A stretch of 64,000 bases of DNA from an uncultured bacterium. Lineage in GTDB: Bacteria; Verrucomicrobiota; Verrucomicrobiia; Verrucomicrobiales; DEV007. Under the pieces are notes generated by a model that worked only from the letters and a program-made list of their open reading frames with translations, was not told the DNA's origin and ran no database searches. The position numbers and the translations under genes are program-made. Positions 1 through 62,886 of this stretch are shown here, piece after piece (positions within the stretch are counted from its first letter, which is position 1; the number at the start of each line of letters is the position of its first letter). Location of the stretch: positions 1 through 64,000 of the forward strand of contig CAXBMO010000016.1 of NCBI GenBank assembly GCA_963977015.1, given 5' to 3'.

Positions 1-28
1 TAGGGTAGCGCAGAACTTCAGTTTTCAA

Positions 29-54
29 GTGTCCATTTTTCGGGAAACAGGTCA
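29..54. mobile_element. Terminal inverted repeat of an IS3-family insertion sequence (element lies left of the window)
   Basis: Reverse complement reads TGACCTGTTTCCCGAAAAATGGACAC, matching the IS3-family end pattern 5'-TG...TGGACAC. It abuts and truncates the intron sequence at 55. Confidence 0.7.
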
Positions 55-238
55 CTAAGAACTGAACCACCCTTCTGGCTCATGGCTTTTGCATAGCCTT
101 CCTCCCCACGACCGGCTACCCGGCCGCAGTTGCCTTCTGCAAGCGCTTGAGTTGGTTACTCTGATTTTCATCATTTCAGCATTCGGTTCTCACACCTGGG
201 ACTTGCACCTCATTAAACCGCGCCCATGCTACGAACAC
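55..238 (-). ncRNA. 5' end (domain I part) of a group II intron, attC-targeting type; truncated by IS
   Basis: Minus strand begins (GT)GTGTTCGTAGCATGGGCGCGGTTTAATGAGGTGCAAGTCCC...GAGAACC...AAGGCAACTGCG...GTGGGGAGGAAG, like 5' ends of attC-inserted bacterial group II introns. The 5' exon ends in TTGT. The start could be 238 or 240 because of the GT repeat. Confidence 0.75.
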
Positions 239-359
239 ACAAGGCGTGGGTGGCAACCCGCTATCCACCCTGAGTCAAAACCCGAATGACAAATCCAACC
301 TTTAACCCTGCAGTCGGACCGCGCCCCCTGTAGTGAATGGGTAGCTTTTGACGTTGAAG
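239..359 (+). other. attC-like recombination site (R'' split by intron 1, right arm partly deleted)
   Basis: ACAAGGCGTGGGTGGCAACCCGCTATCCA ... TGGGTAGC-TTTTGAC-GTTGAAG. 260-267 pairs with 338-345, the core GTT is at 353-355, and the next ATG follows at 362. Confidence 0.6.
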
Positions 360-361
360 AA

Positions 362-922
362 ATGAAGTCCCAAACAATACACCCTTCTATCCTTCTCGGG
401 ATCGGACTCGCAGCGTTGATTGCGGTATTGATTTGGCCACTCCCTACCCACACCCTTAATGAAAGCCAATTTGCAGCTTCTCTCAATGAATCGGGCGTTT
501 GCTCATGGTATTTACGCAGTTGGCCAACATCTGCCGAGCCTTCAGTGGTACGACTCTATTCACTAGAGACTTACCGCGATGCCAAGAAGCGATACTCTCG
601 CGGATATCAACCCAATTCACCCCGTCCCGTGCGAAAAGTCTCAACTTTGGGGATTTCAGCGACAATGGTCGAAGCAGATCGTAATAATGATTTCCATTTA
701 TTTTTTTCATATCGAAACCTCTTCGGATCCATCTCTGTTGACCCCAAACATCCGAAACTTTCAAATGGTCGATCTGCGGAACAAGACGCGTTAAGAGCTC
801 TTGCGATAGTCGTTTCCACGCTTGAGAGTGGAGGCGAAGGCGTCGACACAGTTTCAAAATCGCTGATTGCTCAGTATTGGAGCCGGAAGTTGAAACCAAC
901 AATCGAGGAATACTGGCCATAA
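362..922 (+). CDS. Hypothetical protein with N-terminal membrane anchor; probable gene cassette
   Basis: 186-aa ORF starting 6 nt after the attC core GTT and ending just before the next R''-like box. Hydrophobic ILLGIGLAALIAVLIW; lower GC than the core. Confidence 0.7.
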   Translation: MKSQTIHPSILLGIGLAALIAVLIWPLPTHTLNESQFAASLNESGVCSWYLRSWPTSAEPSVVRLYSLETYRDAKKRYSRGYQPNSPRPVRKVSTLGISATMVEADRNNDFHLFFSYRNLFGSISVDPKHPKLSNGRSAEQDALRALAIVVSTLESGGEGVDTVSKSLIAQYWSRKLKPTIEEYWP

Positions 923-933
923 CTAAACACCGA

Positions 934-1006
934 ATTAGGGTAGGCTGAAGGTTCGAGCTTCAGCTCCCCACACCACCGGCCGTCCGGGCCCGTAGCCGGC
1001 AGTTCC
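934..1006 (-). ncRNA. 3' end (domains V and VI) of a second group II intron inserted in the downstream attC
   Basis: Minus strand GAACTGCCGGCTACGGGCCCGGACGGCCGGTGGTGTGGGGAG (short IIC-like DV), then GCTGAAG/CTTCAGC hairpin and CCTACCCTAAT end with bulged A. The 3' exon begins TCGGT (top strand ACCGA). Confidence 0.8.
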
Positions 1007-1266
1007 GATTCGTCATGCTCTAGCGGATTTTCCCTACAATGCCTTTCGGCTTCTTGGGTCCGTTCGGGACGCAAAAAGGCGAATGGAGATCCACACGAAG
1101 AGCGCGGAGACAGACGCAGTGGAGCGCTACCGATCCCGTCTCCGCACGATCCCCTCCTACGGCGGCCTGGCATTCCGCTCGGCGACGTCTCTCGCCGCGC
1201 GGATGAACCTGAAGGTCTCGGTAAAAAACCGATTGACCCTCGGGAGGTTGAGCCATTGATTTTAGG

Positions 1267-1473
1267 ATGGCTACACTTTTGGAAATCCAGAAAGACACCG
1301 AAGGCCTTTCTATTGAAGAAAAGTCCGGCCTCATCACTCATTTGCTCAGCTCTCTCCCCTCACCCCAGCTTGACTCGCGTGACGAGGAAGCCAATCAGCG
1401 CGATTTGGAAATGGATTCCGGCACCATTGATTTGGTAAGTCACGAGGAACTCGTTAAATCGGTTCGCGGGTGA
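1267..1473 (+). CDS. Addiction-module antitoxin (TIGR02574-like)
   Basis: 68 aa with LSIEEKSGLITHLLSSL...EEANQRDLEMDSG...SHEE pattern; 4-bp overlap with the toxin gene. Confidence 0.8.
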   Translation: MATLLEIQKDTEGLSIEEKSGLITHLLSSLPSPQLDSRDEEANQRDLEMDSGTIDLVSHEELVKSVRG

Positions 1474-1766
1474 AGCGAGAAATTTATTATCACCCAAAGG
1501 TACCCGCCGAAATTCGAGAGATTTACCGTTACTACACGGATCTTTCTGAGCGATTGGGAGAAGAGTTTTGGACTGAGTTGATGGAGGCGCTTGAATACGC
1601 CAGCGAATTCCCAGAACGACATCACTTCGACCCAAGCGGTAGGAGACGGAGCAACTTAACCAAGTTTCCCTATCATTTCCTCTTTCGAGTGTTTCCGGAC
1701 TACATCCGAGTCACTATTGTCCGTCACGATAAGCGAGATCCCAAGCTTGGTTCTCGTCGCTCCTGA
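1470..1766 (+). CDS. Type II toxin, RelE/ParE family
   Basis: 98 aa: YHPKVPAEIREIYRYY...EF..EL...FP...RRSNLTKFPYHFLFR...VRHDKRDP, typical of ParE-like toxins. Confidence 0.85.
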   Translation: MKREIYYHPKVPAEIREIYRYYTDLSERLGEEFWTELMEALEYASEFPERHHFDPSGRRRSNLTKFPYHFLFRVFPDYIRVTIVRHDKRDPKLGSRRS

Positions 1767-1821
1767 GAATACCGCGTTCTGCCAAAGTGGATGATCTCTT
1801 GGAGGCTACGATCAATGACTT

Positions 1822-1946
1822 TTGAGTGATGGCTTGCTGGATCACATGGTCCACCACGGTGGGTAGGCACACCCAGGGCGAGTTGGCTTCCCTCAGGCTT
1901 GGGATTTGGATCCCGCTTGATTTATCTGGATGGGGAGTGGCCATTT
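1822..1946 (-). pseudogene. Frameshifted remnant of group II intron reverse transcriptase (RT0 end to RT2)
   Basis: Across frames reads IKR..(Q)IPKPEG...LGVPT / PTVVDHVIQQAITQ, matching the IEP motif RRVxIPKPxGxxRxLGIPTVxDRVIQQA. Confidence 0.75.
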
Positions 1947-1950
1947 GTGG

Positions 1951-2057
1951 TTCCACCACAAATTCCGCTCAATGATCTGATTACCAGATTCTACAAATCA
2001 GCCAATTGAACGCGGCAAACTGCGATCGTTGGTGGGTTCATAGCCTTGGCGTTCGTC
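1951..2057 (+). other. Remainder (right part) of the second attC-like site
   Basis: CCACC (from 1953) pairs with GGTGG and CCGCTCAAT pairs with ATTGAACGCGG. Ends GGTGGGTTCATAGCCTTGGC-GTTCGTC; GTTCG is complementary to the CGA|AC R'' box split at 933/934. Confidence 0.5.
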
Positions 2058-2174
2058 GAGGGTTCCGGCTTCGCCGATTTCAACAAGGGGCAATCCTTGC
2101 GGATTTTTTTGAGCCGGGAGATGGCGGTGAGTGGCCCATGGACATCCTGTCACTTATCGCCGTAACTCCTGACC

Positions 2175-2660
2175 ATGAACGAAGCGCCTGCCCCTGACGG
2201 AACTCCCGCATTGCTCGTCGTTGCCATCGTCATTCTCTTCCCGATCGTGTTTTGCACGTTCTGGGTCGGGGTTTGTTTCCTGATTTCCCGGTTTGGATGG
2301 CACCAGTTTGCGCAGGATTTCGCCGCCACGAACAAGCCGAGGGAGGGTGCGATGTTTTTTGGGAGGTCGGGCCGGTTTGGTCTCCTGGGATTCGGGCAGT
2401 ATGGCAATTGCCTGGATGCGACGCTGATTCCCGCGGGCATTTACTTAAGCGTGAACGTCCTGTTTCGCTGCGGCCATCGTCCCTTGCTGATTCCGTGGTC
2501 GAAAGTCGAGCGTGTCGAGGAACGATCCTTCCTCTTCGTGAACTTTCTCCACGTGGTGGTGAGGCACGGAACGCGAAAACTTTTCCTCCGGATGCCGCTG
2601 CAAAGCCGCGAACTGATCGAGAACTATCGGCGCGAAGCCACCGCTTCCGAAACGCGATGA
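2175..2660 (+). CDS. Hypothetical membrane protein
   Basis: 161 aa with N-terminal TM segments and a GIYLSV...FRCGHRPLLIPWS motif. Confidence 0.7.
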   Translation: MNEAPAPDGTPALLVVAIVILFPIVFCTFWVGVCFLISRFGWHQFAQDFAATNKPREGAMFFGRSGRFGLLGFGQYGNCLDATLIPAGIYLSVNVLFRCGHRPLLIPWSKVERVEERSFLFVNFLHVVVRHGTRKLFLRMPLQSRELIENYRREATASETR

Positions 2661-2664
2661 GCGG

Positions 2665-2991
2665 TTACCGCACCTGTTCGCGAATCCAGGCGAGGTAGTC
2701 TGCCGACCCGGCCTCGATCGGAACGGCGATGATCTCAGGAACGTCGTAAGGATGACGCTCGCGCAACTCCGCCTCAAGGTTCGGAAAAGCGGCGCGCGTG
2801 GTTTTGAGCATCGCGGGAATTTCCGTCTCGGTCTCGAGGTTCCCTTTCCAGGCGTAGATGGAGGTGGCGGGACTGAGCAGATTGACGCAGGCGGCCAATT
2901 GCTTTTCGACCAACTCAGTGCCAAGCTTTTGAGCGATTTCCGAATTCGGAAACGTGGTGAAGACGAGCAAACAATCGTCGGTTGATTCCAT
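2665..2991 (-). CDS. cutA: Divalent-cation tolerance protein CutA
   Basis: LVFTTFP...LVEKQLAACVN...SIYAWKG...HPYDVPEIIA...YLAWI. Start placed at ATG 2991. Confidence 0.95.
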   Translation of the reverse strand: MESTDDCLLVFTTFPNSEIAQKLGTELVEKQLAACVNLLSPATSIYAWKGNLETETEIPAMLKTTRAAFPNLEAELRERHPYDVPEIIAVPIEAGSADYLAWIREQVR

Positions 2992-2994
2992 GAT

Positions 2995-4170
2995 ATGAAA
3001 GCGGGGTTCCTCGAAAAACTGATCCAAAAAGTCGAACGTGTCGAGCCCGGAGAAGTTCAGGGTTATCTGGTGCGGCTAACGCAGGAAAAGGGGTTTTTGG
3101 AGAAGGTTTTTGATGCGCTGCAGGAGGGCGTGATTGTGACGGATACCGATGGAGTGATTTCCTATGTCAACCGGGCCGCGGGCGAGTTATTTTCCAACCA
3201 GCTGAAAGATGCGGAAGGGGAACGCATCACAACGCGGATTCCAGGCCTGGAATGGGAATCGCTCGTCCACGAGCGCAAGGTTGTGAGCCGTGACCTGGAA
3301 GTCTTTTATCCGGAGAATCGCTTTCTCACCTTTTACCTGGCCCCGATTGAAGATGGGGAAATCATTCTCGGTTGGGTCATGATTTTTCAGGACACCACGG
3401 AGCGTCGCAGGCTGGAGGCGGAGAAGATTGAATCGGAGACGTTGAACGTGTTGACGATGCTGGCGGCCGGCGTTGCCCACGAAATTGGGAACCCGCTCAA
3501 TTCCCTGAACATTCATCTGCAGCTCGCCGAACGAAAGATGCGCAAGGCGCCGCCGAAGTTGCGCAAGGAGATGCAGGAAATTCTCGATATCTCCCGCAGC
3601 GAGATCAAGCGTCTCGATTTGATCATCGGGAACTTCCTCAGCGCGATCCGCCCGACGGAACCGCGAACCAAGGAGGAGGATCTGAACAAGTTGGTGCAGG
3701 AATCCCTGCGCGTGCTGGAGCCGGAAATCAAGGACCGCCAGATCAACGTCCGCGTGGAGCTTCACTCCGATCTGCCGAAGCTCCAGTTGGATGCCGACCA
3801 GATCAAGCAGGCGTTCTACAACCTGATCCGCAATGCGAACCAGGCGATGGGAACGGGAGGTCATCTCGTCATTCGAACCGATGCCGACGACTACAACATC
3901 CTCGTGCAATTTGATGACGACGGGGTTGGGATCAGCGCAAAAGACATGGCCGGTTTGTTCAAGCCTTACCACACCACGAAGCAGAGCGGCTCCGGGCTCG
4001 GGCTCTTGATCGTGCGCCGCATCATTCGGGAGCACGGTGGCGAAATTGAGCTGGAGAGCGAGGAAAAACAGGGAACGACGGTCACCTGTTATTTCCCGCG
4101 GTTCGAGAAGCGCATGCGATTGCTTCCGATGAACGAAGAGTTCGAAGAAATCGTCGTCGAGTCGGAGTGA
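2995..4170 (+). CDS. PAS-domain sensor histidine kinase (NtrB-like)
   Basis: PAS (EGVIVTDTDGVISYVNRAA), H-box AGVAHEIGNPLNSL, N-box QAFYNLIRNA, G1 DDGVGI, G2 GSGLGL. Confidence 0.95.
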   Translation: MKAGFLEKLIQKVERVEPGEVQGYLVRLTQEKGFLEKVFDALQEGVIVTDTDGVISYVNRAAGELFSNQLKDAEGERITTRIPGLEWESLVHERKVVSRDLEVFYPENRFLTFYLAPIEDGEIILGWVMIFQDTTERRRLEAEKIESETLNVLTMLAAGVAHEIGNPLNSLNIHLQLAERKMRKAPPKLRKEMQEILDISRSEIKRLDLIIGNFLSAIRPTEPRTKEEDLNKLVQESLRVLEPEIKDRQINVRVELHSDLPKLQLDADQIKQAFYNLIRNANQAMGTGGHLVIRTDADDYNILVQFDDDGVGISAKDMAGLFKPYHTTKQSGSGLGLLIVRRIIREHGGEIELESEEKQGTTVTCYFPRFEKRMRLLPMNEEFEEIVVESE

Positions 4171-5484
4171 TCAGGAACGATTCCGCGTGAGGAAGTCGGC
4201 GTAGGCGTTGGCGGAATGCTCGGAGAAGTCGAGTCCGTCCTCCTGCTCGCGGTCCGTGGCCCGAAGTCCGACCACCTTGTTGATGATGGCGAAACAAACG
4301 TAGGACAGGACGAAGGCTCCGAGGCAGATGGAGGTCGCGCCGATTGCCTGAACCGCGAGGACGTCCGGATCGAACATCGCGCCTTCGGCAAACAATCCCA
4401 CGCACATCGTGCCCCAGAAACCGTTGAAGAGATGGACGGGAACCGCGCCAACCACGTCATCGATGAGCAGTTTCTCCAAAAAGATCGATCCAGCGGTCGA
4501 AATGATCCCGGCCACGGCTCCAATGATGACGGCGAAGAGCGGATTGACCAGGTCGCAACAGGCAGTGATCGCGACCAGGCCACCCAGAATGCCGTTCAGG
4601 GCGATCAGCGGGTTCGGCGTGCCGCGCAACACCCAGAAAAGCGCCATTCCGGCGATCGCACCAGCGGATCCAGCGACCATGGTGTTGACGCAGATGCGTC
4701 CAAGTTGGTCCGTCGCCTCCAGGAGTGAACCCGCGTTGAAACCAAACCAGCCCACCCAGAGAATCAGGGTTCCGAACGTGGCCAGCGGAAGATTGTGACC
4801 CGGCAGATAGCGTGGACTGCCGCCCGGCCCGAACCGTCCCTTGCGGGGCCCGACAACAATGATGCCGGCCAGCGCCGCAGCGCCGCCAACTGCGTGAACC
4901 ACCGTGGAACCGGCAAAATCGTGGAAACCAATTCGCCCCAACCAACCAGGATCGCCGCCAAATCCGAAAGCCAGGCCCGTGGCTCCCCCACCCCACGCCC
5001 AGTGCCCGAACAGGGGGTAAATGAAGCCTGAAAGAATCACGGTGTAGCACAAATAGCCAAGAAAGCGGGTCCGTTCCGCCATGGCTCCGGAGGCAATGGT
5101 GCAGGCGGTTGCCGCAAACATCGTTTGGAAAAACCAATACGACCAAAACGGGCTGTCACCGGGAATATTCCAGAGCTTGAAGCTGTCCCAGCCAATGATT
5201 CCTCCCATGGACGCGCCAAACATGAGGGTGAAGCCGAAAAACAAAAACGCGAGCGAGGCGGCCGCGAAATCGAGCACGTTCTTCATCGCCACATTGAGCG
5301 TGTTCTTGGCGCGGGCAAGGCCCATCTCCAACATGCAGAAACCAATCTGCATGAGAAACACAAACAGGGCCGCAGTCAAAATCCAGCTGGTATCCGCCGG
5401 GCTGTAGACAGCTGCGGCTTCGGTTTGGGCGAAACCCGAGGGCGCCAGGAGGAACAAGGTGAGGAGAATGAGAAAATTCGGCAT
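4171..5484 (-). CDS. amt: Ammonium transporter (Amt family)
   Basis: FLMQIGFCMLE, SGAMAERT, DFAGSTVVH, LWVGWFGFNAGS, DDVVGAVPVH; both pore histidines present. Confidence 0.97.
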   Translation of the reverse strand: MPNFLILLTLFLLAPSGFAQTEAAAVYSPADTSWILTAALFVFLMQIGFCMLEMGLARAKNTLNVAMKNVLDFAAASLAFLFFGFTLMFGASMGGIIGWDSFKLWNIPGDSPFWSYWFFQTMFAATACTIASGAMAERTRFLGYLCYTVILSGFIYPLFGHWAWGGGATGLAFGFGGDPGWLGRIGFHDFAGSTVVHAVGGAAALAGIIVVGPRKGRFGPGGSPRYLPGHNLPLATFGTLILWVGWFGFNAGSLLEATDQLGRICVNTMVAGSAGAIAGMALFWVLRGTPNPLIALNGILGGLVAITACCDLVNPLFAVIIGAVAGIISTAGSIFLEKLLIDDVVGAVPVHLFNGFWGTMCVGLFAEGAMFDPDVLAVQAIGATSICLGAFVLSYVCFAIINKVVGLRATDREQEDGLDFSEHSANAYADFLTRNRS

Positions 5485-5497
5485 GACGTAGCGGGCG

Positions 5498-6136
5498 TTA
5501 GTGATGTTGTTTGAGCAGGTAATCCAGTTCCAGGTTCAGCAATCCACGCAAACCCCGGTCGCGAATTTGTTTCAAAACTCCCAGCCCAAAGCGTCCGAAT
5601 TCATCGCTGGGCGGAAATTGCCCCTTCGCGAAGCCGCTGTCCGCCAGCTGGCGATCGATCATGGCCGAGGCTTGCCCGGAACCGACGACTTTGGTTAGGA
5701 GCGACTCCAATTCGAGACGAAACGCGGGCCAGCTCAAGCCGGTCTGAGCGGGTTCCGGGACGACAATCGTCTGCGTTTCCTCCTTCGGCTTGGCGGGAAG
5801 GTCCAGCACTTCCGAAAACCGGTCGAGAAAGAGCTCGCCACTTCGTTCCACCATCTCCGTCTGCCCCTGATCCTCGTAGAACATCGCCAGAATGATGGTG
5901 CGATGATTGATCAGCATGAGCGTCAACCCTTCGAAGCCGATCACGACCTTTTTCGCGAGGCGCCCCTCATTGGCATAAGCCTGAAAAAAGTCGACCACGC
6001 CGACCCGAAATTTCTCCGCCTCTTCATCACTCAACGACAAGTCCTTGTACGCATAGGCACCACCGCGAACGACGGCTACGCCATCCAGACGTCGAATCTT
6101 CTTCAGCAAATCAAGGCCGTTTTCCAGAGTCTCCAT
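5498..6136 (-). CDS. Hypothetical protein, possible roadblock/LC7-like N-domain
   Basis: 212 aa, 13 bp upstream of amt. IRRLDGVAVVRGG...helix...VVIGFEGLTLMLIN pattern; helical C-domain LTKVVGSGQASAMID. Confidence 0.6.
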   Translation of the reverse strand: METLENGLDLLKKIRRLDGVAVVRGGAYAYKDLSLSDEEAEKFRVGVVDFFQAYANEGRLAKKVVIGFEGLTLMLINHRTIILAMFYEDQGQTEMVERSGELFLDRFSEVLDLPAKPKEETQTIVVPEPAQTGLSWPAFRLELESLLTKVVGSGQASAMIDRQLADSGFAKGQFPPSDEFGRFGLGVLKQIRDRGLRGLLNLELDYLLKQHH

Positions 6137-6144
6137 CTCGAAAT

Positions 6145-6414
6145 CTAGCGAACCGACTTGAGCAACTCATGAGGAGGAACCTCGCCCACGGCACCCACCG
6201 CAGTGGCGACCAATTCCTCATTGCCGGATTCGGTCACCAAAAATGCCATCGACTCCTGGCCAAAGCTCAGGTACGCGCACTCGATCGGAGATTTTCCAAT
6301 GGAATCGGCAAGTTCGTTGGCGCGTTCGGCCAAGGTAATCGTATCTTCCGTCAACTCCGGCCGGTCGGCGCTATCGATGATGCGCGGGCGGAGTGGCTTG
6401 ATTTCTGGAGCCAT
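6145..6414 (-). CDS. Small hypothetical protein, possible roadblock-like fold
   Basis: 89 aa, first gene of the apparent 3-gene amt operon (8-bp gap to the next gene). Confidence 0.55.
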   Translation of the reverse strand: MAPEIKPLRPRIIDSADRPELTEDTITLAERANELADSIGKSPIECAYLSFGQESMAFLVTESGNEELVATAVGAVGEVPPHELLKSVR

Positions 6415-6620
6415 GTTGGTTTCGAGATTTCGAGGTCAGTAAGCGGCGCAAACTACGGGTTTTTCCCAACCGCGCCACAGATAATTCGACTTTGTCTCAG
6501 GATTTGAAGAATTCTGGAAGGTATGGAATCTGCCAACCTCCGGTCCATCCCAATCGTTGCCCCACCCGCGAATCTGGGTTTAGTAGGGCAGAATTCACCA
6601 TGGACGACTTCGATCTCGGA

Positions 6621-8009
6621 ATGCCAACGTCAACCCTCCTCATCGTCGATGATGAGAAGAATACGCGTGATGGATTGCGTCGTTCGTTTGAGGATGATTT
6701 CGACGTGTATGTTGCGGCCGATATCGAGGGAGCGATGGACGTTCTCAATGGAGATGACATCGACATCATGGTCACCGACCTTCGGCTCGGCGGCGAAAAC
6801 GGGATGGATTTGATCGATCGGGCGCTCAAGCTGGCCAAGGCGCCGATCTGCATCATGATGACGGCCTACGGCTCGGTCGATACCGCGGTCGAGGCGATGA
6901 AACGGGGTGCCTATGAGTACGTCACCAAGCCGCTCAACATCGATGAGTTGGAGATCATCATCAAACGCGCGCTCCGCAGCCAGAACCTGGAGAAGGAGAA
7001 TGTCAGTCTCAAGAAGCAGGTCGAGAAGCGGTTCACGGTCAGCAACATCATCGGCAAAGCACCGGCGATGCAGCCCGTCTTCGACATGATCGAGCAGGTT
7101 GCCCCAAGCCGGGCGACGGTGTTGATCGAGGGCGAAAACGGAACAGGAAAAGAGTTAGTCGCCAAGGCAATTCACAATTTGAGTGGACGCCCCAAGGCGA
7201 AGCTGATTGCGGTTCATTGCGCGGGCCTGAATCGTGAGGTGATGGAGTCCGAGCTTTTTGGTCATGTCAAGGGCGCCTATACCGATGCGCACAAAGACCG
7301 CGTTGGTTACTTTGAGGAAGCCGACGGGGGAACCCTCTTTCTCGACGAGATTGGCGAGATTGATCCTCCCACCCAGATCAAGCTTCTCCGCGCGATTGGG
7401 GAGCGAACGATCCAAAAGGTGGGGAGCACGAAACCGATCGAGGTCGACGTGAGGCTGGTCACCGCGACGAACAAGAATTTGGAATCCATGGTTCAATCGG
7501 GCGATTTTCGCGAGGACCTGTTTTACCGCCTCAACGTCATCACGATCAACATGCCTCCGTTGCGCGATCGCAAGGAGGACATCGTTTTGCTCGCCGACGC
7601 CTTTCTCAAGGAATTTGCCGAGGAAAACGCGAAACCGGTGAAGGGACTGACGAACGAAGCGCTGGGCTGCCTGATGGAATACGACTGGCCCGGCAATGTC
7701 CGCGAATTGCGAACCGCGATCGAGCACGGCGTCGTGCTTAGTCAGGCTGAGAAGATTACGGTGCGGCACCTGCCCCAGCGCGTTCGCGGCGAACGGAATT
7801 CCTCGCTCGCATCCTTCGGCGGAAAAGCGGTCGGCAACCTGAGTTCCAACGGAGGATCCAATACCGATCTGAATCTCGCGAAAATGGAAGAGCAGTTCAT
7901 CCGGATGGCGCTCGATCGCACCAACGGCAACCGCACCGAGGCCGCCGAGTTGCTCGGGCTAAGCCGGCGAACGCTGCAACGGCGTCTCAAGGAAATGGGA
8001 CTGAATTAG
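6621..8009 (+). CDS. Sigma54-dependent response regulator (NtrC family: REC-AAA+-Fis HTH)
   Basis: LLIVDDE/VTDLRL receiver, GENGTGKE Walker A, ESELFGHVKGAYTDA, TLFLDEIGE, FREDLFYRLNV, WPGNVREL, C-terminal HTH. Start 6621 or 6600. Confidence 0.96.
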   Translation: MPTSTLLIVDDEKNTRDGLRRSFEDDFDVYVAADIEGAMDVLNGDDIDIMVTDLRLGGENGMDLIDRALKLAKAPICIMMTAYGSVDTAVEAMKRGAYEYVTKPLNIDELEIIIKRALRSQNLEKENVSLKKQVEKRFTVSNIIGKAPAMQPVFDMIEQVAPSRATVLIEGENGTGKELVAKAIHNLSGRPKAKLIAVHCAGLNREVMESELFGHVKGAYTDAHKDRVGYFEEADGGTLFLDEIGEIDPPTQIKLLRAIGERTIQKVGSTKPIEVDVRLVTATNKNLESMVQSGDFREDLFYRLNVITINMPPLRDRKEDIVLLADAFLKEFAEENAKPVKGLTNEALGCLMEYDWPGNVRELRTAIEHGVVLSQAEKITVRHLPQRVRGERNSSLASFGGKAVGNLSSNGGSNTDLNLAKMEEQFIRMALDRTNGNRTEAAELLGLSRRTLQRRLKEMGLN

Positions 8010-62724: not shown

Positions 62725-62886
62725 CACGAGCTCGGTCACAAAGCCGAGGTCAACAAGGTTCACGTCAACGACCTCCACGCCACGATTCTGCATCAGCTAG
62801 GGCTCGATCACGAGAAACTGACCTACACCTACGCCGGTCGGAGGTTTCGGCTGGCCGATGTTGGGGGGCATGTGATCCGCGTATTG
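62725..62886 (+). pseudogene. C-terminal fragment of a DUF1501 gene
   Basis: [50 protein letters not shown]. Confidence 0.8.

Follow-up and report, generated by a model that had tools for sequence, protein, structure and literature searches.

We examined a window of 64,000 nt, the first 64 kb of contig C16 (CAXBMO010000016.1), in the genome of an uncultured bacterium of the Verrucomicrobiales. This genome (G000; 6.9-Mb, 51 contigs, whose numbers carry the prefix C) was compared with others, among them G001, from the same genus, and G029, a complete genome from the same order. At the left end of the window, read on the plus strand, an integron recombination site (attC_a) is followed by ORF186, an open reading frame (ORF) of 186 aa, a second candidate site (attC_b), a toxin-antitoxin pair, a decayed region, ORF161 and the conserved backbone. 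A sequence-only reading of the first 2 kb had proposed a cassette array in which both consecutive attC sites are occupied by antisense group II introns. [quoted passage not shown]

Both introns survive as fragments on the minus strand, recognised by homology. Intron 1 (56..238) is the 5' fragment of a class IIC group II intron and comprises the start of domain I; 183 nt of the 5' end are kept, with homology over 77-238. Its first base is 238, where the minus strand reads ...CCACCCACGCCTTGT/GTGTTCGTAGCATGGGCG or, in a longer rendering, ...GCCACCCACGCCTTGT/GTGTTCGTAGCATGGGCG (slashes mark intron-exon and exon-exon joints here and below). The intron begins GTGTT, which carries one mutation; its relatives begin GTGTG or GTACG. 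Intron 2 (934..1094) is a 161-nt 3' remnant made up of the last codons of the intron-encoded protein (IEP; 1035-1094, ..WISIR..), together with domains V and VI; a deletion has removed ~1.7 kb on its 5' side. Its final base is 934 (minus strand ...CCTTCAGCCTACCCTAAT/TCGGTGTTTAG), and its other end lies at 1094 or 1096, with an ambiguity of 2 nt. The 3' end reads ..CCUACCCUAAU, with the bulged A of domain VI 7 nt upstream. Apart from the one mutation at the start of intron 1, these features conform to the pattern of class IIC introns, which have 5' GUGYG and 3' AY ends and a bulged A as branch point in domain VI. The domain V triad is TGC in place of CGC, the triad of the relatives that was taken as support for class IIC, and one pair of the upper stem is broken. 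Intron 1 and intron 2 are decayed, dead relics and not intact elements.

Comparison with other copies identified these fragments. In blastn searches of G000, window positions 88-242 matched C6:270464-270614 (84% over 155 nt, E 5e-40), with further matches of intron 1 on C17 and C4, and positions 938-1095 matched C31:26721-26863 (80% over 161 nt, E 2e-37). Over shorter stretches, the identity of intron 2 was 90.6% to the C31 copy (96 nt) and 77.5% to the C17 copy (80 nt). The two window segments correspond to the two ends of a single full-length intron of 1.87-kb at C17:848-2720, which passes three Rfam models (RF02001, 99.8 bits; RF00029, 46.4 bits; RF01998, 36.2 bits). The IEP of this intron scored 415 bits with TIGR04416 (cut-off 300). 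In Pfam it showed RVT_1 and GIIM, and otherwise, at E<=0.001, only a sub-threshold RdRP_1 match; this fits a reverse transcriptase (RT)/maturase without an endonuclease domain. C17 holds the only full-length copy of its intron family in G000, the other members being fragments. In G001, the homologues of the window introns pass RF02001 and RF00029, and two introns there that Rfam recognises share 83% identity with intron 1 over 185 nt. Because the window pieces are homologous to copies that pass Rfam, we take them to be genuine class IIC group II intron fragments, antisense to the cassette genes.

The exons flanking these fragments define where the introns entered. The window junctions TTGT/GTGTT and TAAT/TCGG rejoin as CCGA/ACAAG, the R'' consensus of the attC family described below; the longer joined exon CCGA/ACAAGG equals the R'' consensus gccgAACAAGaCGg. 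Insertion thus fell between A and AC of R'', which is TTGT/T on the bottom strand. This is the published target of the IIC-attC introns, the R'' box on the attC bottom strand, cut as TTGT/T (excerpts of PMC7923331). The 5' exon ends in TTGT in the window, on C6 and C4 and in three G001 copies, and in TTGG on C17; the 3' exon begins with T in four of five intron copies, and with TCG or TCT in three. An intron in a class 1 integron (NZ_CP031121) has the same junction (gaaTTGT/GTACG ... CCCGAT/TAGACGG), and the window junction strings are nearly identical to it. Both introns lie on the minus strand, whereas ORF186, the toxin-antitoxin pair and the attC top strand lie on the plus strand. The layout is that of a cassette array: R' precedes the ORF start by 8-14 nt in the window, on C4 and on C17, and ORF stops lie 11-14 nt before the junction in the window and on C17. 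ORF186 (362..922, plus strand) begins 8 nt past the GTTGAAG at 353-359, and 11 nt separate its stop from the 933/934 junction.

On these points the sequence-only reading was correct to the base. It had placed an intron 5' end at 238 after TTGT and a second intron's 3' end at 934 before TCGG, had joined the exons to an attC R'' box, had set the ORF (362-922) between an attC core GTT and the next split R'', which both the ORF list and the sequence bear out, and had named TTGT/T on the attC bottom strand as the insertion point. Its antisense group II introns can now be assigned to class IIC, and homology upholds the minus strand, but they are decayed fragments and not intact elements; its feature end at 2057 cannot stand as an intron end, since the second remnant stops at 1094.

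We then asked whether the site split by intron 1 belongs to a genuine attC family. When 40 related genomes were searched with the DNA of window positions 239-933, 8 other genomes matched over the first ~100 nt (239-355); in one relative, copies of this family lie 0.5-1.7 kb apart. Fifteen copies from 7 other genomes, with the window and an intron-bearing G001 copy excluded, were used to build a covariance model, R1. These copies align over 126 nt, with the consensus gccgAAC-AAGaCGg at the start and ACGTTcgGc at the end. RNAalifold predicts for them a consensus fold of 24 pairs, with compensatory changes in 13; xAAC is paired to GTTx, and the 5' (R''/L'') arm has four single unpaired bases, one every four positions. 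With this model attC_a (233..359, plus strand) scored 48.2 bits (E 7.9e-10; nhmmer E 1.6e-17). Intron 1 splits its R'' box and leaves only AC (239-240) on the attC side, and its R' box is the GTTGAAG at 353-359. The family agrees with the general attC pattern, in which the boxes R'' (RYYYAAC) and R' (GTTRRRY) pair and an imperfect stem has unpaired bases on one arm. R1 found the family in at least 18 places in G000, among the 150 of 1559 candidates that were scored, and nhmmer found it in 14; an array on C36 is included. In G029 an intI gene (2267125-2268069; 363.7 bits, cut-off 265) is followed by 15, 20 and 20 R1 matches on the same strand, in three adjoining stretches. The comparative fold, the R1 score and this intI-linked array together establish that the 126-nt family is a genuine attC family and that attC_a is a member of it. 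The G029 locus (G029:C1:2267125-2300000) is itself a complete chromosomal integron, in which at least 55 R1 matches alternate between forms of ~126 nt and ~106 nt.

The second site is of a different kind. The left half of its R'' box (ACACCGA/, 926..933, plus strand) rejoins the AC at 1095-1096 to give ACCGAAC, which matches the R'' consensus gccgAAC. With 934-1094 removed, this box begins 3-4 nt after the ORF186 stop. The remainder of the site (1095..1222, plus strand) would belong to a second, rarer attC-like family, with the R' box GTCTCGGT at 1215-1222. Across the intron, ACCGAAC is complementary to the R' sequence GT(C)TCGGT over 7 bp with one bulge. From position 1095 the window is similar to sequences abutting two intron 5' ends on G001:C3 (76% over 125 nt and 70% over 118 nt), and these counterparts stand at the positions of attC sites, within a cassette array in which one R1-type attC is also present. 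We consider attC_b to be probably a decayed attC of the second family, and it may represent an attC of the functional type. The claim that both consecutive sites are occupied thus has two parts: R1 supports it for attC_a, and homology and the R''/R' complementarity are what speak for attC_b.

Several results weigh against two invaded attC sites. Rfam intron models gave no match in the window at gathering score and none at E<=10 in positions 1-3000, because the intron copies there are too short and too mutated. Half of what the sequence-only reading had named as evidence against itself was thus found, and homology decides the matter in its place. The attC_a site has several non-canonical stem pairs and ranks 14th of the 18 R1 scores in G000. 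R1 run with filters off does not detect attC_b, whose R' box has GTC where its relatives have GTT. A free minimum-free-energy fold of the correctly joined, intron-less attC_b leaves R'' and R' unpaired. The shuffle z-scores of attC_b, computed on versions whose joint was one or two bases off, were only -1.4 to -1.6 (-1.3 to -1.6 over the intron-less attC_b and C17 sites). No attC was found after the toxin gene, which makes a third invasion, taken up below, a weak case, and no outward sigma-70-like promoter was found in the intron 1 fragment. Finally, a phylogeny of 14 IEPs groups the five integron-borne ones in a clade that excludes the C17 protein (split support 96/92). An attC-like fold of the intron-less sites, which the sequence-only reading had named as a check, fares accordingly: the free fold speaks against it at attC_b, and the family fold and R1 support it at attC_a. 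Single-sequence folds of the 5' exons were suggestive of attC structure for C6 and C4, but not for the window.

The results on attC_b could instead mean that only attC_a is a real attC, and that intron 2, in the manner of non-attC IIC introns, follows an ordinary hairpin or terminator, in which case there is no consecutive occupied pair. We regard this as unlikely. The silence of R1, the unpaired boxes in the free fold and the GTC of R' all agree with it, and IIC-attC introns retain terminator targeting (excerpts of PMC7923331). Against it, ACACCGA/ and AC join to the family R'' consensus, 3-4 nt past an ORF stop, and the R' box complements R'' over 7 bp with one bulge. The homologues of 1095-1222 are moreover placed in the same way, beside two intron 5' ends, in the G001 array that holds an R1-type attC, and the split boxes of one of these introns, intron A (GGCTAAC and GTTATCC), match in 6 of 7 positions.

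A different arrangement would make positions 934 to ~2084 one intron, whose ORF region was replaced by the antisense toxin-antitoxin module. In its favour, there is a separate RT piece: positions 1822..1950 on the minus strand are homologous to residues ~138-180 of the C17 IEP (tblastn, 46.7% over 30 aa, E 0.002 against 3 kb) and 83% identical over 101 nt to the RT region of G001 intron B. This remnant (1950 to 1822) and the 3' end (1094 to 934) stand in the right order and on the right strand, and a TTGT/T string follows the terminator-like hairpin and T run at 2084-2099. Nevertheless, intron homology ends at 1094, where it abuts attC-homologous sequence with its own R' box at 1215-1222, and positions 1951-2083 contain no domain I-III sequence. 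The hairpin lies inside 2062..2110 (plus strand), the last 49 nt of a ~135-nt repeat that blastn and nhmmer found on C6, C41 (two copies) and C30. Since 2062-2110 is one conserved unit in these four other copies, across the supposed junction, it is not an exon-intron joint. We hold the one-intron arrangement to be quite improbable. That the intron-like strings are chance resemblances or some other repeat, as the lack of an Rfam match in the window might suggest, is refuted by homology at E 1e-37 to 1e-40 to copies with full-length relatives that encode an RT/maturase and are recognised by three Rfam models.

With two sites invaded by separate introns, the RT piece at 1822-1950 suggests that a third intron, now a relic, entered the site that follows the toxin-antitoxin cassette.

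Contig C16 contains no TIGR02249 match and hence no recognised intI. The window therefore offers one model-supported and one homology-supported attC site, and the array may extend beyond the contig start; a CALIN is defined by two or more attC sites with no intI nearby (excerpts of PMC4889954). The earlier reading as an integron or CALIN end fits, as the contig starts at the array and lacks intI. The earlier guess of a genome from the Planctomycetes-Verrucomicrobia-Chlamydiae (PVC) superphylum holds, the IntI of G000 being 72% identical to that of a Verrucomicrobiales bacterium. The intI gene of G000 lies elsewhere, at C1:216131-217426 (291 bits, cut-off 265). No R1 attC lies within ~1.5 kb on either side of it, no cassette-like array of small ORFs was found in the 20 kb upstream or 5 kb downstream, and no R1 matches adjoin three loci related to this IntI. 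The attC sites of G000 are scattered over at least 10 contigs.

Both limits of the array are marked. The window opens with a repeat edge (1..55), multi-copy and probably the end of an insertion sequence, at which the assembly broke: blastn searches of G000 located the same 52-57 nt in 11 other contigs, where they lie at a contig end or no more than ~60 nt from it, and C43 carries them at either end. The start of contig C16 is accordingly the edge of a multi-copy repeat, by which intron 1 is truncated or interrupted; no body of this repeat turned up in the G000 assembly. On the other side, three same-genus genomes align with the window only from 2662-2676 rightwards, so that the conserved backbone starts at ~2662, with cutA at 2665-3027 on the minus strand. 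No R1-type attC was found beside cutA in these three genomes in the 1.5-kb flank examined.

The arrangement in the window recurs. On C6 an intron 3' fragment, a GNAT gene and an intron 5' fragment stand in the same order of two consecutive occupied sites. On G001:C3 an ORF-less mini-intron of ~690 nt (3961-4646), which passes RF02001 and RF00029, and a full-length intron (~5505-7495) occupy consecutive attC-position sites with one cassette ORF between them. The intact C17 intron also lies between two cassette ORFs, with a second R1 match upstream.

These observations suggest the following sequence of events. Members of a class IIC intron family, of which the C17 copy is intact, would have retrohomed into the bottom strands of attC_a and attC_b, each entering between A and AC of R'' and antisense to the cassette genes, as IIC-attC introns do. 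Both copies would then have decayed, intron 1 being cut by the contig-start repeat and intron 2 being left with its last 161 nt. Separation of R'' from R' would stop the integrase from folding and cutting these sites, and ORF186 and its neighbours would thereby be frozen in place; the change of GTT to GTC at attC_b would add to this effect. The cassettes would accordingly have been immobilised by introns.

We also compared this intron family with the known IIC-attC introns. The 5' motif GTRCGCCCAGCATGGGC is common to introns inside class 1 and Shewanella integrons, but it also occurs in non-integron IIC introns of Cohnella and of a Clostridium plasmid; it marks class IIC and not an attC sub-lineage. 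When plasmid matches of the C17 IEP are ranked by E-value and bit score, the best are 48-51% identical and lie in integron arrays, antisense to cassettes. In the 14-IEP tree, C17 is sister to a group of the 5 integron-borne and 6 other IIC IEPs. An approximately unbiased (AU) test did not reject the joining of C17 with the integron-borne clade (p 0.061), in a small sampling and with a group named after the tree was seen. The C17-family element works like an IIC-attC intron. It is conceivable, though doubtful, that the Verrucomicrobiales carry an IIC lineage of their own, outside the proteobacterial IIC-attC clade, that independently gained or kept attC-R'' targeting. Such a lineage might colonise consecutive attC sites (the window, C6, G001:C3) so often that, with decay, mobile cassettes become fixed chromosomal genes.

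G000 also contains a second IIC family, whose IEP is 41% identical to that of C17, with an intact intron in the locus C18:44113-47072 and a copy at C36:39668-39742. Unlike the C17 family, these introns have the same orientation as the cassettes. The order is a cassette stop, GCCGAAC, a hairpin and then GGTTGTTG/GTGCGCCCGG, which means that the intron entered the top strand, where a short attC-like hairpin has its R'-like end. The copy on C36 falls within the array there, of six R1 matches. If the separate lineage considered above were real, it and this top-strand family together would make both attC strands general landing pads for IIC introns.

We compared the window with published intron-integron systems. 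The IIC-attC introns, such as S.ma.I2 of Serratia marcescens, are alike in their class IIC RNA, in an IEP without endonuclease and in insertion at R'' of the attC bottom strand (TTGT/T), antisense to cassettes; their hosts are Proteobacteria, whereas the host here is of the Verrucomicrobiales and the copies are dead fragments (excerpts of PMC3001079 and PMC7923331). An integron on a Shewanella xiamenensis plasmid (NZ_CP143634), with two ltrA genes, likewise holds more than one antisense IIC intron in one array. Its introns are full length, four cassette genes apart and beside intI, in contrast to the consecutive, decayed introns of the window, which have no intI nearby. The same excerpts of PMC7923331 describe a CALIN of Halorhodospira halochloris with two 5'-truncated introns and many toxin-antitoxin cassettes. 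Like the window, it combines relics of truncated introns with toxin-antitoxin cassettes and has an insertion sequence close by, but its relics are of class IIB and those of the window of class IIC. They also describe UHB.F1, a truncated IIC-attC intron like those of the window, whose IEP has a Verrucomicrobia RT as its best database match. The IntegronFinder paper records integrons as such from the Verrucomicrobia (excerpts of PMC4889954). In the literature that we searched by title and the start of the abstract, we found no description of consecutive occupied attC sites.

The pair of neighbouring split attC sites is a clear but fairly ordinary new example of the known intron-integron association. 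It extends that association, known mainly from Proteobacteria, to the Verrucomicrobiales, with junctions resolved to the base. R1 provides a usable attC model for this order, and exposes the integron of at least 55 cassettes in G029 and several integrase-less arrays in G000. The recurrence of neighbouring attC sites that were hit and then decayed suggests how cassettes may cease to be mobile and turn into resident genes. Sedentary chromosomal integrons have species-conserved attC families, for example the Vibrio cholerae repeats (VCRs) of Vibrio. Compared with these, the 126-nt family is likewise long, conserved in length and found in large arrays after intI (G029). It differs in being common to several genera of one order, and its consensus fold has the four single unpaired bases spaced every four positions.

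The genes of the array itself gave few matches. ORF186 has a predicted N-terminal hydrophobic segment and matches no Pfam and no NCBIfam family. The next cassette carries two genes on the plus strand that resemble a type II toxin-antitoxin pair, judging from Pfam matches below cut-off. The putative antitoxin (1267-1473) matched Unstab_antitox (E 5.8e-4, 20.3 bits, cut-off 23.3) and the putative toxin (1470-1766) matched ParE_toxin (E 4.5e-3, 18 bits, cut-off 23); neither protein matched an NCBIfam family. The two ORFs overlap by 4 nt, and their sizes and overlap fit a ParE/RelE-type pair. ORF161 (2175..2660, plus strand), the last gene of the variable region, matches no Pfam and no NCBIfam family. 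A promoter scan of 1-2700 returned a single sigma-70-like site, inside ORF186, with an expectation of 1.2.

Copies of the ~135-nt repeat start directly after ORF stops at C6:270950-271130, C41:13400-13580, C41:462-642 and C30:30306-30407. The repeat, examined as a possible third attC family or intron 3' end, showed no similarity to domain V sequences. In its C6 and C41 copies the joint to an intron IEP remnant is identical, which indicates that the composite was duplicated as a unit. A repeat search of window positions 1-4000 gave nothing informative. At C31:26867-26930, tandem copies of TAGCCCTACCCGAT (the last 10 intron bases plus 4 exon bases) directly follow the intron 3' end. Far from the array, a weak R1 match on the plus strand at 62748-62866 of the window (16.8 bits, E 0.045) may be a degenerate lone attC or a chance match.

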